From Squalus acanthias (Eukaryota): a stretch of 64,000 bases of DNA. The translations under genes and the position numbers were made by a program. The notes under the pieces are model-generated. The model made no database searches. It was not told the origin of the DNA and worked only from the letters and a program-made list of their open reading frames with translations. Below, piece by piece: positions 25,061 through 36,988 of this stretch; positions within the stretch are counted from its first letter, which is position 1, and each line of letters starts with the position of its first letter. The stretch is taken from assembly GCA_030390025.1 (NCBI GenBank), contig CM059432.1:98148001-98212000 (forward strand), in the 5' to 3' direction.

Positions 25061-28000
25061 ATGGCTTTATTCATCCATGGAGTCTCATTATTGTTTAATT
25101 TGTTCTTTCCTTTTAGCGGAATATATTTTTCCTGCACTCTGTTGAACACCATTTTAAATGTTTCCCATTGCTGTTCTACATCGTTGTTTGCCAATATTGT
25201 TGCCCATTTTTTTCCTAAGTTCTATTCTCAGCCCCTCAAAATCAGCTTTTCTCCAATTTATTAACCTGGTTTTCGTCATACTTATGTCCTTCTCAATTAT
25301 CATCTTAAAACGTATTATATTATGGTTACTATTGCCTATATATTCCCCTACCTTTACTTCTCTTATCTGCTCTGGTTCATTCCCCATTACTAGATCCAAT
25401 AGCGAATCCTGTGTTGTTGGGCTTTTTACATATTGGGTTAGAAAGGAGTCCAGTACACATTGTAGGAACTGCATTCCCTTATCCCCTTTACCTACCTCTT
25501 CTGTCCAATTAAAATCAGGGTAGTTGAAATCCCCCATGATAATATTCTATGGGGGAAAAATTCAGTTGGTTGCGCCTCCCGTTAGCGCCTTAAGAGGGTG
25601 CTAATGGGGCGCAAAGCATCTAGCGCCCAGGCGCGGCGAAGTTTGCGCCGCTCGTGAAATTAACTAGACATTTTGCGGCGGTGCTAAACACTACCGCCAC
25701 GATCTCCTGCGCCGGCAGATCGTGACATCAGTCGAGTGCGCAACGCCCCGGTATCGCCCCGGAGCGGATATTGAGTGGCGCCCCCTGCCTTACTGCCTGA
25801 CGCTAGCAACGACAGGTTGAGGGGAAGCGTTCTGCAGTCATGAGGGGAAAGGGGGGGCGCTATTTAAAGGTGACCGCTTCCTGCCTTTTATTGTTGGTGA
25901 CATTTTTGAACTACGCATTCTGAGAGAGGGAGAGAGACTTCTGGAGAGATTCAACGTTGTGTGAAGGAGTTTTGGGTACTGAGCAGCACTTTGCAGGTTC
26001 ATTTTGATTTGCCATTCCTTGTATCGATTTAGAAGAGACTCTGGGGGCTGCACTCTGAGCTATTTGCCTGGTACTCTCCATTGTTCTTTCCAGCAGATTT
26101 GATGTGCAGGTCTCTCCAGGCCGAGATTCAAGGCTGCAATGAGCAGGATGTGGATGGAAAGCAAGATTAACCATCCCCTTTAAGAACTGGCCCGTGCCAT
26201 TGTGTGTGTGTTCCATTGCTGACTGACATTACATGAGCTTCGCCAGCGCTCTGAGGTAGCGCCTCGCTCCTCGGCCTTTGCGCCTTAAGACAGGTGTGAA
26301 GCGCCTGATTTAGCGCTCCAATCACCTCCAGGGGCGATAAAAGTCAAGTTTGCAGTCGGTGGCGATAATTAGCGCCAGGCGCTAATCTTTGCGCCCGGCC
26401 GATAATTGCGCCCCAAATGGGGCGATACTGAATTTCTCCCCCTATGTTTTTTACTCATTTCCCTAATTTGTCTGCATATTTCTTCCTCCACCTCCCTTTC
26501 ACTATTAGCTGGTCTGTAGACTACGCCTATTAGTGTGATTGATCCTTTATTATCTTTTATCTCTATCCATATGGATTCTATTTTTGTCTTGCTGATATCT
26601 GCGTCACTTTTTTCAACTGCTATTATGTTATCCCTAATAAGTACAGCTACTCCACCTCCCCTTTTTCCCTCTCTATCTTTTCTAAATATGTTATACCCTG
26701 CAATGTTTAATTCCCAGTCCTGATTTTTCTGTAGCCATGTCTCAGTAATCCCTACTATGACTGGTTCCTCGCAATGTATGATTGCCTCCAGCTCCCCTGT
26801 TTTATTACGGACACTGTGCGCATTGCTGTACAGTCAGTTTAACTCATTTTTAATAGGATTTCCTCTCACTTTATGTTTAACCATCTTTTTAGACTTCTGT
26901 TCTATAACTCTATTTATTCCCTACCATGAATGTCCTCCCTTACTTTATTCTTTCCTATGTTCTCTTTTCCTGTTTTGTTTATATTTAGGCTGGTTACGTT
27001 TCTTGTAGATCCCTCCCCCCATCTTACTAGTTTAAAGCCTTTGCCACTTCCCTATTTACCCTTTCCTCTAGGACATGGGTCCCATCCCGGTTCAGGTGGA
27101 GCCCATCCCATCAGTACAGCTCCTTCCTGTCCCAGAACTGGCGCCAGTATCCCATGAAAAGGAACCCCTCTTTCCCACACCAGCCCTTTAGCCACGTGTT
27201 AATTCTCCTGATCTGTCTGCTTCTATGCCAATTTGCACATGGCTTGGGCAATAATCCAGAGATTATTACCCTCGAGGTCCTGCTTTTTAATTTAGATCCT
27301 AACTCCTGATACTCTTTCAGCAGGACCTCCTCCCTGTTCCTACCTATGTCGTTTGTTCCAACATGGACCATGACAACTGGATTTCCACCCTCCCTTTCCA
27401 AGTTCCTCTTCAGCCGTCATGAGATATCCCTTACCCTGGCACCGGGTAGGCAACACACCCTTCGGGATTCTCGTTCTTGGCTGTAGAGGACGCTATCTAT
27501 CCCCCTAATTATAGAGTCCCCTATCACTACCACATTTCTATTCTGCTCTTCCTCACCTTGGACAGCCTTCCGAGCCACGGTGCCTTGGTCTGCATTGTGG
27601 CTGTCCTCCCTGCAGTCTTTCTCCTTGCTCTCACAGGTAGTGAGTACATCATACCTGTTGGACAGGACCAGTGTCTGCAGGACCTCCTTCTCAACCTCTC
27701 CTAAATCCCCGCTACCCGTCTCCCTAACAGTCACACCCTCCCCTTCCTGAACCTGTGCTTTCCTCTGGGGTGTGACTGTATTCTGGATAAAACTGTCCAG
27801 AAATTCCTCCCCCTCCCTTATGTGTCGGAGTGTCTCCAACTCGCACTCCAGCTCAATGCCACTGAGCCGGAGAGATTCGAGATGGAGACATCTCCTGCAG
27901 ACGTGTTTGCTCAGGACAGTCTCACTGTCCACAAACTCCCACATACTGCAGTCCAGACACACAACCTGCTCTGCCATATCTTAGTCTAGCCTTATTTTAT

Positions 28001-28320: not shown

Positions 28321-29121
28321 ATCAATTCCAGGGCACTAAGGACAATAATATATCATCAGGCAGGGCAGAATCAGCTAGAGTTCCACCTATGAATGCCATC
28401 CCATGATCCCTGTGTTTCTGCTTGGGCGTTCTCCCCTGTTTACAACTGGACAACCATTTCCATAAGCAGACTGTCCCTGGTTAATGTAGCCCAGGTTCAA
28501 TGATAACCAGATATGTATGGCAGAGGCCCATGCCTGATCTGTATGGGCATTCAGGCCACTGTTAAACTGGTCGCTGCCATTTTTTAGGTGGCCCTGGTGA
28601 CTGCCTGAAATGAATGCAGGCCTCATTTCAATATAGAGCCGCCTGTAAAAAATTTGATTTCCTCTTTTATGCCAGATGCCTTTTATTTCCCTCAACAATT
28701 CTTAATAAACCCCAATATTAAACCTAACCCTGAATAAATCCAAATTTTTATTTGAATATATGATAGTGATTATTATGATATGACTGTACATCACAAAACA
28801 TATAGCACAAGACTAGCTAGTATAATTGCAGAAAATATGAAGTAAGAGTTCAGGAACATCACTTGTGTTTATGCTTTGATTGCAATTAGTTATTTCAGTC
28901 ATTAGCTTTTTGGTGTAACTTAATTCTAAAAATGAAGTAGAACATAATTACAAAATAAACAAGCAGGCAAATTTTCAAATGCACAATTTCCCTTGTCACA
29001 CTAGCAGAGAAGAATAACAAATTAGAAGGAATAAAACATAGAACATAGAACATAGAACAGTACAGCACAGTACAGGCCCTTCGGCCCTCGATGTTGTGCC
29101 GAGCATTGTCCGAGACCAAGA

Positions 29122-32028
29122 TCAAGCTATCACACTCCCTATCACTCTGGTGTGCTCCATGTGCTTATCCAATAACCGCTTGAAAGTTCCTAAAGTGTCC
29201 GACTCCACTATCACAGCAGGCAGTCCATTCCACACCCCAACCACTCTCTGAGTAAAGAATCTACCTCGGACATCCCTTCTATATCTCCCCCCATGCACCT
29301 TATAGTTATGCCCCCTTGTAACAGCTGCCTCTACCCGAGGAAATAGTCTCTGAACATCCACTCTATCTATCCCCCTCATCATCTTATAAACCTCTATTAA
29401 GTCGCCTCTCATCCTCCTCCTCTCTAAAGAGAAAAGCCCCAACTCACTCAATCTTTCCTCATAAGACCTGCCCCCCAAACCAGGCAGCATCCTGGTAAAT
29501 CTCCTTTGCACTCTTTCCAATGCTTCCACGTCCTTCCTATAGTGAGGTGACCAGAACTGCACACAATATTCCAAATGTGGTCTCACCAAGGTCCTGTACA
29601 GTTGCAGCATAACCTCACGGTTCTTAAACTCAAACCCTCTGTTAATAAACGCCAACACACCATAGGCCTTCTTTACTGCTCTATCCACTTGAGTGGCAAC
29701 CTTCAGAGATCTGTGGATATGAACCCCCAGATCCCTCTGCTCCTCCACGTTCCTCAGAACCCTGCCGTTGACCCTGTAATCCTTATTCAAATTTGCCCTA
29801 CCAAAATGAATCACCTCGCACTTATCAGGGTTAAATTCCATCTGCCATTTTTCGGCCCAGCTCTGCATCCTATCAATGTCTCTTTGCAGCCTACAACAGC
29901 CCTCCACCTCATCCACTGCTCCACCAATCTTGGTGTCATCAGCAAATTTACTGATCCACCCTTCAGTCCCCTCCTCCAAGTCATTGATAAAAATCACAAA
30001 CAGCAGAGGACCCAGCACCGACCCCTGTGGCACACCGCTGGTAACTGGTCTCCAGTCCGAAAATGTTCCATCCACCACCACCCTCTGCCTTCTATGAGAT
30101 AGCCAGTTACTTATCCAATCGGCCAAATTTCCCTCTATCCCACAACTCCTTACTTTCTTCATGAGCCGACCATGGGGAACCTTATCAAACGCCTTACTAA
30201 AATCCATGTATACGACATCAACTGCTCTACCTTCATCTACACACTTAGTTACCTCCTCAAAGAATTCAATCAAATTTGTTAGGCAAGACTTACCCTTCAC
30301 GAATCCGTGTTGACTATCCCTGATTAAGTTGCCCCTTTCCAAATGGTCATAAATCCTATCCCTCAGGACCTTTTCCATTATCTTACCAACCACCGAAGTA
30401 AGACTAACCGGCCTATAATTACCAGGGTCATTCCTATTTCCTTTCTTGAAGAGAGGAACAACATTCGCCACTCTCCAGTCCTCTGGCACCATTCCCGTGG
30501 ACAGTGAGGACCCAAAGATCAAAGCCAGAGGCTCTGCAATCTCCTCCCTTGCCTCCCAAAGAATCCTAGGATATATCCCATCTGGCCCAGGGGACTTATC
30601 GACCCTCAGGTTCTTCAAAATTGCTAAAACATCTTCCCTCAGAACATCTACCACCTCCAGCCTATCCACCTTTATCACACTCTCATCCTCAAGAACATGG
30701 CCCCTCTCCTCGGTGAACACTGACGAAAAGTATTCATTCATCACCTCTCCTATCTCTTCTGACTCCATGCACAAGTTCCCACTACTGTCCTTGACCGGCC
30801 CTACCCTCACCCTGGTCATTCTTTTATTTCTCACATAAGAGTAAAAAGCCTTGGGGTTTTTCTTGATCCGACCCGCCAAGGACTTCTCATGCCCCCTCCT
30901 AGCTCTCCTAAGCTCTTTTTTTAGCTCATTCCTTGCTACCTTGTACCCCTCAATCGACCCAACTGAACCTTGTTTTCTCATCCTTACATACGCTTCCTTT
31001 TTCCTCTTGACTAGACATTCAACCTCTTTTGTGAACCATGGTTCTCTCACTCGGCCATCTCCTCCCTGCCTGACAGGGACATACCTATCAAGGACACGCA
31101 GTAATTGCTCCATGAAAAAGCTCCACTTTTCGTTTGTGCCTTTCCCTGATAGTTTCTGTTCCCATCTTATACTCCCTAATTCTTGCCTAATCGCATCATA
31201 ATTACCCCTCCCCCAATTATAAACCCTGCCCTGCCGTATGGCCCTATCCCTCTCCATTGCAATAGTGAAAGTTACCGAATTGTGGTCACTATCTCCAAAG
31301 TGCTCTCCCACATACAAATCAAACACTTGGCCCGGTTCATTACCCAGTACCAAATCCAACGTGGCCCCACCTCTTGTCGGCCTATCCACATATTGTGTCA
31401 GGAAACCCTCCTGCACACACTGTGCAAAAACTATCCCATCCGAACTGTTTGACCTATAAAGGTTCCAATCAATATTTGGAAAGTTGAAGTCACCCATGAC
31501 AACTACTCTGTGACCTCCACACCTATTCATAATCTGCTTTGCAATTTCTTCCTCCACATCTTTATTACTATTTGGGGGCCTGTAGAAAACTCCTAACAAC
31601 GTGACCGCTCCTTTCCTATTTCTAACTTCAGCCCATATTACCTCAGACGGCAGATCCCCCTCGAACTGCCTTTCTGCCGCTGTTAAACTATCCTTGATTA
31701 ACAATGCTACTCCTCCACCTTTCTTATCAACTTCCCTACTCTTACTGAAACATCTATACCCCGGAACTTCCAACAACCATTCCTGTCCCTGTTCTAACCA
31801 TGTCTCCGTAATGGCCACCACATCGTAGTCCCAAGTACCAATCCACGCTCCAAGTTCTCCTACCTTATTCCGGATGCTCCTTGCATTGAAGTAGACACAC
31901 TTCAAGCCATCTTCCTGTCTGCCGGTACATTCCTGCGACCTTGATACCCTCCTCAGTACCTCCCTACACTCACCACTGGCTCGTGGACTACAGCCCTTTT
32001 TCCCATCCCCCTGACAAATTAGTTTAAA
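29122..32028 (-). CDS. CR1 ORF2p (APE endonuclease and reverse transcriptase), uninterrupted, start mechanism unclear
   Basis: YFNARS, ITETW, GDFN, SDH, then KSPGPDG, GVPQGSVLGP, FADD. The track start at 32139 is TTG; the first ATG lies well inside the endonuclease. The 5' boundary given here is the slippery site. Confidence 0.93.
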   Translation of the reverse strand, partial: FKLICQGDGKKGCSPRASGECREVLRRVSRSQECTGRQEDGLKCVYFNARSIRNKVGELGAWIGTWDYDVVAITETWLEQGQEWLLEVPGYRCFSKSREVDKKGGGVALLIKDSLTAAERQFEGDLPSEVIWAEVRNRKGAVTLLGVFYRPPNSNKDVEEEIAKQIMNRCGGHRVVVMGDFNFPNIDWNLYRSNSSDGIVFAQCVQEGFLTQYVDRPTRGGATLDLVLGNEPGQVFDLYVGEHFGDSDHNSVTFTIAMERDRAIRQGRVYNWGRGNYDAIRQELGSIRWEQKLSGKGTNEKWSFFMEQLLRVLDRYVPVRQGGDGRVREPWFTKEVECLVKRKKEAYVRMRKQGSVGSIEGYKVARNELKKELRRARRGHEKSLAGRIKKNPKAFYSYVRNKRMTRVRVGPVKDSSGNLCMESEEIGEVMNEYFSSVFTEERGHVLEDESVIKVDRLEVVDVLREDVLAILKNLRVDKSPGPDGIYPRILWEAREEIAEPLALIFGSSLSTGMVPEDWRVANVVPLFKKGNRNDPGNYRPVSLTSVVGKIMEKVLRDRIYDHLERGNLIRDSQHGFVKGKSCLTNLIEFFEEVTKCVDEGRAVDVVYMDFSKAFDKVPHGRLMKKVRSCGIEGNLADWISNWLSHRRQRVVVDGTFSDWRPVTSGVPQGSVLGPLLFVIFINDLEEGTEGWISKFADDTKIGGAVDEVEGCCRLQRDIDRMQSWAEKWQMEFNPDKCEVIHFGRANLNKDYRVNGRVLRNVEEQRDLGVHIHRSLKVATQVDRAVKKAYGVLAFINRGFEFKNREVMLQLYRTLVRPHLEYCVQFWSPHYRKDVEALERVQRRFTRMLPGLGGRSYEERLSELGLFSLERRRMRGDLIEVYKMMRGIDRVDVQRLFPRVEAAVTRGHNYKVHGGRYRRDVRGRFFTQRVVGVWNGLPAVIVESDTLGTFKRLLDKHMEHTRVIGSVIA

Positions 32029-32945
32029 CCCCCCCGAAGAGCCGTAGCAAATTTCCCTCCCAGGATATTGGTGCCCCTCTGGTTCAGGTGCAAACCATCC
32101 TGTTTGTACAGGTCCCACCTTCCCCAGAATGTGCTCCAATTATCCACATAACTGAAACCCTCCCCCCTACACCATCCCTGCAGCCACGTGTTTATCTGCA
32201 CTCTCTCCCTGTTCCTCAACTCGCTAGCACGTGGCACCGGCAACAAACCAGAAATTACAACATGGTTTGTACTGGCTCTCAGCTTCCAACCTAGCTCCCT
32301 AAATTCCTGTTTTAAATCCCCGTCCCTTCTCCTACCTATGTCGTTGGTACCGATGTGTACCACGACTTGTGATTGTTCCCCTTCCCCTTTGAGGATTCTG
32401 AAAACACGGTCCGAGACGTCACGGACCCTGGCACCCGGGAGGCAACATACCATCCGTGAGTCTCTTTTGCTGCCACAGAACCTCCTATCTGTCCCTCTGA
32501 CTATTGAGTCCCCAATAACTATTGCTCTCCTGCTCTCCCCCCTTCCCTTCTGAGCCACAGGGACGGACCCAGCGCCGGAGATCCGGTCACCGTGGCTTAC
32601 CACTGGTAAGTCGTCCCCCTCAACAGTATTCAAAGCGGTATACCTGTTACTGAGGGGAACGACCACAGAGGATCCCTGCACTGACTGCTTCCTCCTAGCC
32701 CCTCTCACCGTCACCCATCTATCTTCATGCTTTGGAGTAATTACATCCCTGAAGCTTCTATCTATGACCTCCTCTGCCTCCCGAATGATCCGAAGTTCAT
32801 CCAGCTCCAGCTCCAGTTCCCTAACACGGTTTTCGAGGAGCTGGAGATGGGTGCACTTCCCACAGGTGTAATCAGCAGGGACACCTACGGCGTCCCTCAC
32901 CTCAAACATTCTGCAGGAGGAACATTTCACTGCCTCTCCTGCCAT
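32019..32945 (-). CDS. CR1 ORF1p (zinc finger, coiled coil, SGNH esterase-like), 308 aa
   Basis: CSSC...CGKC, LENRVRELELELDELR, then GDSIVR, HIGTND and DGLHL motifs. Confidence 0.95.
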   Translation of the reverse strand: MAGEAVKCSSCRMFEVRDAVGVPADYTCGKCTHLQLLENRVRELELELDELRIIREAEEVIDRSFRDVITPKHEDRWVTVRGARRKQSVQGSSVVVPLSNRYTALNTVEGDDLPVVSHGDRISGAGSVPVAQKGRGESRRAIVIGDSIVRGTDRRFCGSKRDSRMVCCLPGARVRDVSDRVFRILKGEGEQSQVVVHIGTNDIGRRRDGDLKQEFRELGWKLRASTNHVVISGLLPVPRASELRNRERVQINTWLQGWCRGEGFSYVDNWSTFWGRWDLYKQDGLHLNQRGTNILGGKFATALRGGLN

Positions 32946-33987
32946 CCCCTCCAGCTAACTTGCAGATTAAACTAGAACAAAAAAGAGCTTACCTGATAGT
33001 CACTCACCTCCTTTAGGTTAGAGGAGGAGGAAGGGTGGGGGACACTACAAGTGTAGTGTCTCGGGTTTAGGAACCGCCCAACTTAAATACAGGTAAAAAT
33101 TAATCACCTACCCAGCAACCACTGCGTCCCGCACTTTAAAAGCCTCTGTAGGCCTACCTGGTCGCCGCCGCCTCTTGACTCCTCCGCCTCGCCGCATAAG
33201 GGGGAATTGGAACTCCCTCCACCAAGTGAAAACCAGGCGGAATGGGAGTTAAGTTACTGATCGAAGCCTGACCCGCAGCCATTTTAATGTTGTTTGCAGA
33301 TGGCTGAGGCATCCACCTGACTGAATTGGGAGCCTCATAAATTTATGCAAATAGTGGTTCCATCACTTAGATTGGACCCAGATAAAATTTTAATGGCCGA
33401 CTGAGCTGGCAGTAAAGTAAATTTGGCAGGCAAAAAGTGGATTCCCTCCAAGCAATATTCCCTTTAATTTTTTTTTGGGTGCGCGGCCCATTCAAAATAA
33501 CATGCATGCGTGGTTTTTCCTATTTAAAAGCCATCTCACCGGCTGCGCAGGAGCTGCAGAGCACTGCCGAGCTGCGTGGCTTAAAGGGAACGCTGCCTGT
33601 AAGGTAAGGTTCTCTTTGTGTGGCCAGGAAGATTAGGAGTGCTCCTCTGGGCCCCACAAAGACATTTTGGGCCACGGTCACCCGGGCTCTCGCACCCGCT
33701 CCACCCATGAAACCCTCCTGAACTCCCGCGACTTACCTGACTGCCGGCCTGGTGGTCTGGGCCACCTGCTCTTTGAAGGCCAAAACTCGGTGAGCTGCGT
33801 CAAGTTGCCCATTTTGAGTGGGCAGCAGGCTAGCGGGATGTAAATGAGGCCCGGCTGTTAAAATGGACCGGGCCTGCCACTACTGATCCAGGCCAGTGGA
33901 CCACGCATCCCAATGGCTTCCCACTCGGAGGTTAACATTCCCTCTATAGAGCCTTAGCCAGTGAGGAAGAAGAAAATGACAGAGATT

Positions 33988-35031: not shown

Positions 35032-36988
35032 GGGCTTGATTTTGCCATTGGGGTCGGGCTGGGACGTGTCAGGTGGTTTTCGTGTCAGGACCCCGACTCC
35101 GATGTGAAGTGGGAAGAAAGTGCGATTTTCCCCTAATTGGGCACTTGATTTGCAGCGTGTGGGAACCACTGGCCCAATTAGTCTTTCCATCCTGAAAGTC
35201 GCCTCCGATGACGTCATCAGTGCTGCTGGATTTAAGGCCTGCAAGCAGCCTTGCTTCTTCTGGAGACTGGAAACGCTTTGGACATTGTATGAAGGACTTC
35301 ATTTACTGACCATGTCCACCAGCAAGCAAAAGTGTGCACCTCACTTTGATGAGCCCTCCCTCCAAGCTCTTGTGCAGGGAGCAAAATCTAATAAGGAGGT
35401 GCTCTTCCCTTCCTCAGGGAGAAAAAAGCCACTACAACAGACTAAAGCTGTGTGGCTGCAAGTGGCCCAGGAGGTCAATGCCATCTCTATGTGCCGCAGA
35501 ACCTGGCTGCAGTGCAGGAAGAGGTTTCATGACCTTCTCCGCACAGGAAAAGTGAGTATGACTTTCTCATCACCCTCAATCTCATCCCCATCCCCATCGC
35601 CTCTCCTCACCAGCACTCTGCTTTGCCAACCTCGTCCTCCACATCCCACTTGACACTGACATCCCTGCACCCTTACCCATTCCCTCTCTCTCTATGGTCA
35701 CATTCACTTAACTATTCGACCATGCAGCCCTCACACTCCCTATCACTGTGACGCAATGACAACAACTTACAACACACAGAGAGGGCCCTTTGTCTCCTTC
35801 TAAGCATTTATGCTATGGAGTCTCTACACTCACTCCTTCATTCTCACTCAAACTCCACTTGTGTCCCTCATTGCAGGAATAGAGAGCCCACAATAAGAGG
35901 GAAAGAGCAAGGACAGGAGGAGGGCCACCCTCAGTAGCCCAGCTCACCACCTCGGAGGAGGCGGCCCTGGAAATTGCCGGGATCGAGGAGGATTCCCAAG
36001 TGGGGGACGGACAGGCGGGCGCATCACAGCAAGCTGGTGACAGAATAGTTTGGCATCTCTCTCATTGACATTGCATGAGTGACTGATAATGATTCTAATG
36101 CTCTAACAGATTGACTTATGATCATCTGCACAATTCAATGTGCATGCAACCTTTGCCTCACATCTCTAACTCTTTCCTTTACTCCCCCACAGGACCATCG
36201 ACAGCCCCCGTCCCCACTGTCCAGGAGGAAGAGCCTGAGCTTCCAGACTCCTCAGAGGAAGCTGTAACCTCTGAGGGCGCTCCGTCGGCAGAATTAAGCG
36301 CACCCTGCACCAGCGCAGACACTCACACCTCGGTGGGACCTTCGGGACATAGAGTAGAGTTGTCACCTGGTGTATCACAGCTCACAAGTGAACATCAGCA
36401 GATGGTGGAGACAGGGACAGCAGTGGAGAGTCCTCGTCACAGTGGAGAGGACGCCCCCAGCTCGGCCATGCTTCTGGTATGTGCCTCAGTTGAGGAAGCG
36501 CTCAGTCAAGGTGGCGAGAGGGATTTCCCAGGAGGTCACACTGGAGATGGGTGTCAGGCTCCAAACTTTCACAACAATGGGTATGCCTGCAAAAGTTCCC
36601 CCAGACCTGAGACAACAAAGTTCTGCCACCTGCAAATGATGATTGCTGAAAACTCCTTTTTAATGGTGGAGCTGCAGCTGTTAGTAAGCAGTCCACTTGT
36701 GAGGCCGCCAGGATTCACTGGCATGTTCCAGAGGAGACGTGCAGGACGTGGGAAAAGTGGGAAAATCAGAAAGGCCTCTCAAAATGGGATTATAGAGGCA
36801 CTTAACTGGTTGTTAAGGGCCTTAAGGGCCTATCCCGCCTCTTGGAGGCGGGATGGAAATGGGGTCAGAAAACACGCATTTGGGAAAATTGCTCGGAGGC
36901 AGGATGGAGGCGGGATCGGGCCCACCCGCCATTTTTTGCGATTTTACGCCTCCAATCCCGCCTCCTCGGGCCTGGCAAAATCGAGCCC
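35032..36988 (+). mobile_element. Harbinger deletion derivative (Myb exons 1-2 and part of 3, no transposase)
   Basis: GGGCTTGATTTT...AAAATCGAGCCC with TSD ACT. Exon 1 at 35312-35551 (W...RTWLQCRKRFHDL then GTGAGT). Exon 2 starts at 35877 with an in-frame TAG at its second codon. Confidence 0.9.

Follow-up and report, generated by a model that had tools for sequence, protein, structure and literature searches.

We analysed a stretch of 64,000 nucleotides (nt) from Squalus acanthias (assembly GCA_030390025.1, contig CM059432.1, positions 98,148,001 to 98,212,000 of the forward strand), called the window below and numbered from its first letter. On its reverse strand lies a full-length copy of CR1, a long interspersed nuclear element (LINE) with two open reading frames (ORFs), ORF1 and ORF2, which meet at a slippery heptamer of the kind used in programmed −1 ribosomal frameshifting. 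The features of this copy are as follows.

29037..33196, (−) strand: young full-length CR1 LINE copy; its 5′ edge at 33196 is common to other copies, at ~99% identity
29057-29037, (−) strand: 3′ end of the element, (TTCTATG)3
32019..32945, (−) strand: ORF1, 308 amino acids (aa), with an N-terminal Cys-pair motif, a C-terminal SGNH/GDSL esterase and the terminus GGLN-stop
29122..32028, (−) strand: ORF2 from the slip site, stop-free, with an apurinic/apyrimidinic-type (APE) endonuclease (Pfam Exo_endo_phos, E 2e-21) and a reverse transcriptase (RT; Pfam RVT_1, E 4.5e-37)
32022..32028, (−) strand: slippery heptamer TTTAAAC (U_UUA_AAC) in the phase of ORF1, T-TTA-AAC
32019..32021, (−) strand: ORF1 stop TAA, directly 3′ of the heptamer
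31994..32011, (−) strand: unpaired G-rich tract GGGGGATGGGAAAAAGGG, a candidate stimulator, starting 10 nt past the heptamer
31894..32028, (−) strand: linker of 45 codons without Met, open in the −1 frame only (stops: 0 in −1, 3 in frame 0, 4 in +1)
31528..31530, (−) strand: earliest ATG in the ORF2 frame, at codon 167 from the heptamer and within the fold of the endonuclease

The element is classified as an esterase-type CR1 from its domain layout, its 3′ tail and its ORF1 homologs: ORF1 encodes an SGNH esterase (Pfam Lipase_GDSL_2, E 3.8e-13; PDB 4c1b, 'ORF1-encoded protein', E 5e-29), ORF2 encodes an APE endonuclease and an RT, and the 3′ end is a short tandem repeat rather than poly-A. The same esterase ORF1, APE and RT ORF2 and short 3′ repeat tail are described for vertebrate esterase-type CR1 elements (PMC13343379, PMC3905857). 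In the 3.7-Gb genome that was searched, copies of this element are ~99% identical in the flanking alignment and have staggered 5′ ends, as dispersed, 5′-truncated copies do, and the best 40 genomic matches to the junction are near-identical; the family is therefore young. The closest named ORF1 homologs come from sharks and rays. The first 55 bases of the element are repeated upstream in another copy (L014, 201-483), which suggests a tandem 5′ promoter unit.

At the junction, the heptamer has the form X_XXY_YYZ in the frame of the upstream ORF, and the downstream ORF of this family is open in the −1 frame without a start of its own. The ORF2 frame has no stop between 32139 and 29122, and its reading across the heptamer is GFKLICQGDG; the endonuclease motif YFNARS begins 135 nt from the heptamer start, and all seven ATGs between 32140 and 31800 lie outside the ORF2 frame. 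A start at the first in-frame AUG would remove ~130 endonuclease residues: Met167 aligns near residue 133 of the human L1 endonuclease, and Glu75 upstream of it aligns with L1 residue 43, which we take to be the catalytic Glu of that enzyme. Much of the original prediction, which was made from the letters of the window, is borne out here, namely that the CR1 is intact (full-length from 33196 to 29037, with no stop in ORF2), that ORF1 ends on an in-phase U-UUA-AAC and a stop (32028-32019), that ORF2 is open through this site in the −1 frame, that no ATG lies ahead of the endonuclease motifs (true for this family, where the first is at 31530) and that G-tracts follow the heptamer (32011-31994). 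An ATG in strong context does occur within the G-tract, at 32006 (−), 12 nt past the stop; it is in the ORF1 frame and opens a frame of 17 codons, and an ATG of this type is common to the A-type subfamilies and absent from the B-type ones. As TTTAAAC has 20 matches in the window on both strands, one copy of it is weak proof, and the case stands on conservation.

Within the genome, we sampled the first 100 of 19,950 matches to an upstream esterase motif, using a pattern that did not contain the heptamer; protein-based locus scans gave no matches. An exact TTTAAAC followed by TAR was found within 40-200 nt in 75 of the 100 loci, at exactly the same offset in 54; most of the other loci show a single-base difference or are old copies that have been rearranged. 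The 30 best copies of this family all carry the heptamer and TAA, 28 share the same first Met, and in 21 ORF2 has no stop as far as the retrieved sequence extends. Because copies decay neutrally, selection is visible only between lineages; copies were grouped by linker, 30 copies were added for each of four thinly sampled groups, and column majorities were taken.

Eleven subfamily majorities were scored, leaving out B5 (two damaged copies), five singletons and A4, whose majority is broken by upstream G-run expansion and in which 13 of 15 copies give a 150-nt linker. The heptamer is TTTAAAC in ten of these majorities and TTTAAAT in the other, a group of two copies, and TAA or TAG comes next in all eleven. 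Their linkers measure 135, 135, 165, 165, 174, 192, 207, 207, 207, 213 and 261 nt, so that with the 150-nt twelfth group every length is a multiple of three; the eight distinct lengths imply at least seven length changes, all of them phase-preserving. None of the linkers has a stop in the −1 frame (3-11 stops in frame 0, 2-13 in +1). Going upstream from the heptamer, 10 of the 11 majorities have the −1 frame closed after 1-5 codons, none has an upstream Met, and ORF2 therefore opens at the slip site. Conservation of the −1 phase among subfamilies, which had been put forward as a check together with the prediction, is thus seen in every well-sampled subfamily.

Some apparent departures from this layout were rejected. 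The frame-0 layout of subfamily B1 (linker of 208 nt in 4 of 6 scored copies) is a G-run expansion artefact: the G-run is 7 nt long in 21 of 30 additional copies, with a majority linker of 207 nt. Mixed phase among scored copies of subfamilies C (5 of 12 in phase) and B4 (9 of 18) is likewise set aside, their column majorities being open and 207 nt long. In old copies, expansion of the G-runs beside the junction is much commoner than contraction, so that single copies show a scrambled apparent frame.

Such conservation could in principle be a by-product of protein constraint, acting on Leu-Asn in one frame and Phe-Lys-Leu in the other, or reflect a different cis signal, for example an RNA-protein site, with ORF2 made in some other way. 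The terminal Leu-Asn is invariant in 20 of 20 aligned ORF1 proteins, and several nearby codons likewise have an invariant third base in this genome. Leu-Asn, however, needs neither TTA-AAC nor a preceding T. The terminal Leu is TTA in all 11 majorities, the invariant Leu at codon 13 uses four codons, and TTA makes up 3 of the 25 Leu codons of ORF1. The first U of the heptamer is kept in codons for Gly or Ala in this genome and for His, Asn, Tyr or Ala elsewhere, and the 69 nt preceding the heptamer are only 54-96% identical among the majorities. The closure of the −1 frame just upstream in 10 of the 11 majorities places Phe-Lys outside any longer overlapping ORF. Moreover, the L2-type esterase homologs P0116, P0118 and P0120 terminate without Leu-Asn, and the structure of the zebrafish L2-type esterase matches ORF1 only to residue 304 of 308, leaving the terminal Leu-Asn outside the matched fold. 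We find it improbable that protein constraint or another cis signal accounts for the heptamer.

The junction is also conserved beyond this genome. A search for ORF1 homologs that did not require Leu-Asn listed 120 proteins, 80 of them with a recognisable DxLH motif; among these 80 listed homologs, 65 have the Leu-Asn terminus, among them proteins from ray, coelacanth, bony fish, frog, turtle, snake and lizard. Four longer homolog entries, of which two bear names (ray and tortoise), extend through FKL, which is what the same bases encode in the −1 frame. In three outside collections, a DNA pattern that contained the heptamer, and hence tests only the phase, gave 40 matches, of which 24 have ORF1 homology; the other 16 lack it and were dropped. 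Eight of the 11 outside loci that have a scored endonuclease match are in the −1 phase. Bird-type elements are among the outside loci, identified as such by resemblance to protein P0112, which we assume to be of bird type. A distant CR1-like group (L293, L295, L304, L307, L316 and L322), with 25-33% ORF1 identity, has the same heptamer, and two of its members have intact ORF2s that, counted from the slip site, are 977 and 985 codons long. The heptamer, whose conservation across CR1 had also been proposed for checking, is thus kept far outside this genome, in bird-type, fish/amphibian-type and very distant relatives, and the heptamer junction is confirmed as a real, conserved feature. Two entries with bacterial labels look like contamination: P0006, a shark-type CR1 ORF1 labelled Pseudomonas aeruginosa, and L328, a vertebrate-type CR1 junction in a 257-base Jeotgalibacillus contig.

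An ORF1 that ends in U_UUA_AAC-stop, followed by an ORF2 that lies one base back and has no usable AUG, makes −1 frameshifting likely, and we propose with good though not full confidence that ORF2 is made in this way, as an ORF1-ORF2 fusion. Coronavirus-type sites such as that of infectious bronchitis virus (IBV) have the same heptamer in the same phase, with the polymerase in the −1 frame, and on mammalian ribosomes U_UUA_AAC is listed with the heptamers that shift most readily (PMC5009743). In the proposed mechanism, Leu-tRNA on UUA and Asn-tRNA on AAC would re-pair on UUU and AAA in a minority of ribosomes, which would then pass the UAA and read CUA next. Their product would be a 1274-aa fusion of esterase, linker, endonuclease and RT (308 + 966 residues, ...GGLN-LICQGDG...). 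The majority of ribosomes would terminate and yield the 308-aa ORF1 protein (ORF1p), the outcome being a high ratio of ORF1p to enzyme, as in gag-pol. The least certain step is the pause, which may be provided by the unpaired G-tract, as a weak G-quadruplex or through a bound protein, possibly aided by the adjacent stop. The fusion by frameshifting that was originally predicted is thus supported by the heptamer, its phase and the AUG-less start of ORF2, but not by any classical stimulator structure.

Several findings weigh against frameshifting, and they concern the stimulator, the sampling and the start codons of ORF2. Viral U_UUA_AAC sites use a downstream pseudoknot or stem-loop, whereas none is predicted in the CR1 junction (PMC5009743 for the viral sites). 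A local hairpin or pseudoknot stood out against dinucleotide shuffles in none of the 11 majorities (z −0.8 to +1.9), and in this family the downstream fold (z +0.2 to +0.6) contains no predicted hairpin; the folding program does not model pseudoknots, and no stem is present on which to build one. A heptamer without a stimulator usually shifts only weakly. Pairing of the G-tract with the 3′ end of this element, a long-distance interaction of the barley yellow dwarf virus (BYDV) type, is unsupported (z +1.4); in 12 other copies such pairing gave z −2.4 to +0.8 against lenient mononucleotide shuffles, with the 3′ end mis-picked in two. A long-range partner for the G-tract in the ORF1 32570 region (−22.9 kcal) was rejected, being no better than the 40 listed of 227 G-matched control 22-mers, which range from −17 to −30. 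The description of the signal as canonical was therefore too strong: no stem-loop or pseudoknot is predicted 5-9 nt downstream, and with only an unpaired G-tract the signal is not fully canonical.

That tract is present in all 11 majorities, starting 8-11 nt past the heptamer. Its G4Hunter score in this family is 1.56, and a two-tier G-quadruplex is predicted (ViennaRNA) in 7 of the 11 majorities, this family not among them. The G-tract encodes Gly-rich linker residues and G-runs mutate fast, and its conservation may be partly protein-driven. Natural G-quadruplex stimulators were not known as of 2016 (PMC5009743). A hairpin is found in the distant group, where 8-9 base pairs (bp) with a G-rich loop lie 4-5 nt past the heptamer and 89% of cells are paired, as against 30-48% when the hairpin is slid; its covariation is not above that of shuffles (194/500). 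Of the natural sequences, those of this group are best suited to testing for a classical stimulator. A broader scenario, in which esterase-type CR1 LINEs, which predominate among the retrotransposons of most vertebrates, have made their RT as a −1-frameshift ORF1-ORF2 fusion since before the shark-bird split, and the vertebrate slip is driven by an unpaired G-tract (through a G-quadruplex or a binding protein) and not by a hairpin or pseudoknot, is tentative and to our minds rather doubtful.

As to sampling, the subfamilies are related and form about three clades, so that they do not amount to eleven independent trials. Among 18 neighbouring codons, 3 have an invariant third position, and one of these is the first U of the heptamer, which makes this U alone weak evidence. 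Three of the 11 outside loci are out of phase, all decayed, stop-bearing copies from one assembly.

As to start codons, the expectation that a family consensus would have no ATG upstream of the endonuclease stands for this family but not throughout: a linker Met is absent in 5 of the 11 majorities, the intact family included, and present in frame in 6, at positions that are not shared. Subfamily B2 (L034, L053, L070 and others) combines the heptamer with a TAATG stop-start overlap in the ORF2 frame, and in four of the six loci of the distant hairpin group an ATG stands in frame at codon 7, 8 nt past the stop. These in-frame AUGs maintain termination-reinitiation as a rival, in which ribosomes would stop at the ORF1 UAA and restart a few codons on in the −1 frame, at an AUG or non-AUG codon, to make a separate ORF2 protein (ORF2p) as in L1. 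Entry near the stop would likewise keep the linker open. The L1 ORF2 start is thought to be AUG-independent (PMC5009743, PMC1965478), and L1 survives the loss of its ORF2 AUG (PMC1965478), so that AUG-less entry alone needs no fusion. What reinitiation leaves unexplained is the perfect X_XXY_YYZ before the stop, from sharks to birds and beyond, and the constant −1 phase; nor do the subfamilies share a start codon, their post-stop codons being variable. The bicistronic RNA of another LINE, SART1, is said to use UAAUG coupling; stop-start overlap of this type is absent in this family and occurs in 1 of the 11 majorities. We consider reinitiation unlikely.

A spliced or internally started transcript might also give ORF2 a start, with the AG that precedes the G-tract serving as acceptor. 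In this family, the bases past the heptamer do resemble a weak acceptor, and two donor-like hexamers lie in the 5′ untranslated region (33007-33002 and 32992-32987, both (−)). However, there is no polypyrimidine tract, and the AG context is missing from the B and C subfamilies. Contigs of four sequencing runs, from close relatives, contain no joints over 31400-33250, and several span the junction unchanged, which is weak evidence as the RNA status of these contigs is a guess. Two joints near the junction were rejected, as they come from a more distant organism and their linkers are unlike. Such a transcript appears highly improbable, and −1 frameshifting remains the reading that we prefer.

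In proposing frameshifting, the original prediction drew a contrast with LINEs that use reinitiation, and this contrast proved less sharp than it was drawn, since ORF2 of the Dictyostelium elements TRE5-A and TRE3-A, which are APE-type retrotransposons without long terminal repeats, is stated to need a −1 frameshift (PMC5911963). These elements differ from CR1 in belonging to the L1 clade and having another ORF1, and the likeness, taken from a review (PMC5911963), may rest on a slippery site or on mere overlap. For Paramecium LINEs, a +1 frameshift, reinitiation or readthrough has been suggested (PMC5405496). Mammalian L1 is also a bicistronic LINE RNA that needs little ORF2p; a spacer lies between its two ORFs, which are made as separate proteins (PMC5009743), whereas the CR1 frames overlap at the slippery site. 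Frameshifting is not mentioned in the main texts of the two papers on vertebrate esterase-type CR1 (PMC13343379, PMC3905857); in the accessible parts of two others, it is mentioned for retroviruses only (PMC11835228) and CR1 goes unmentioned (PMC5009743). The literature searched, which covered main texts (including that of PMC4255032 as far as accessible) and did not extend to the classic CR1 papers, where the overlap may be mentioned, contains no report of CR1 frameshifting.

The window also holds a second CR1, with these features.

27977-26440, (−) strand: second CR1, diverged and broken, with stops in ORF1 and an ORF2 that ends inside the endonuclease
27027..27036, (−) strand: heptamer and TAG of the second CR1

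Its linker is 206 nt long, one base below the subfamily majority of 207 nt, which is open in the −1 frame. A third TTTAAACTAA lies at 28116-28107 (−), in the AT-rich 5′ region of the second CR1 and not at an ORF end, probably by chance. Elsewhere in the window, an open frame at 35108-35653 (+) encodes a Myb/SANT-like domain (Pfam PF13873, E 7e-11) and is possibly derived from a DNA transposon.

How ORF2 is translated is an open question for LINEs, L1 included. Judged from sequence and its conservation, the junction is most likely a site of programmed −1 frameshifting, in a LINE family already known, with a stimulator that is unusual or missing. If CR1 does use a gag-pol-like frameshift, the enzyme would be attached to the ORF1 esterase, with consequences for particle assembly and cis preference; annotations of CR1 ORF2 that begin at the first Met would miss part of the endonuclease, and engineered CR1 constructs would have to retain the junction. 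Should the slip be driven by the G-tract, CR1 would offer a natural case of a stimulator hitherto shown with synthetic constructs.

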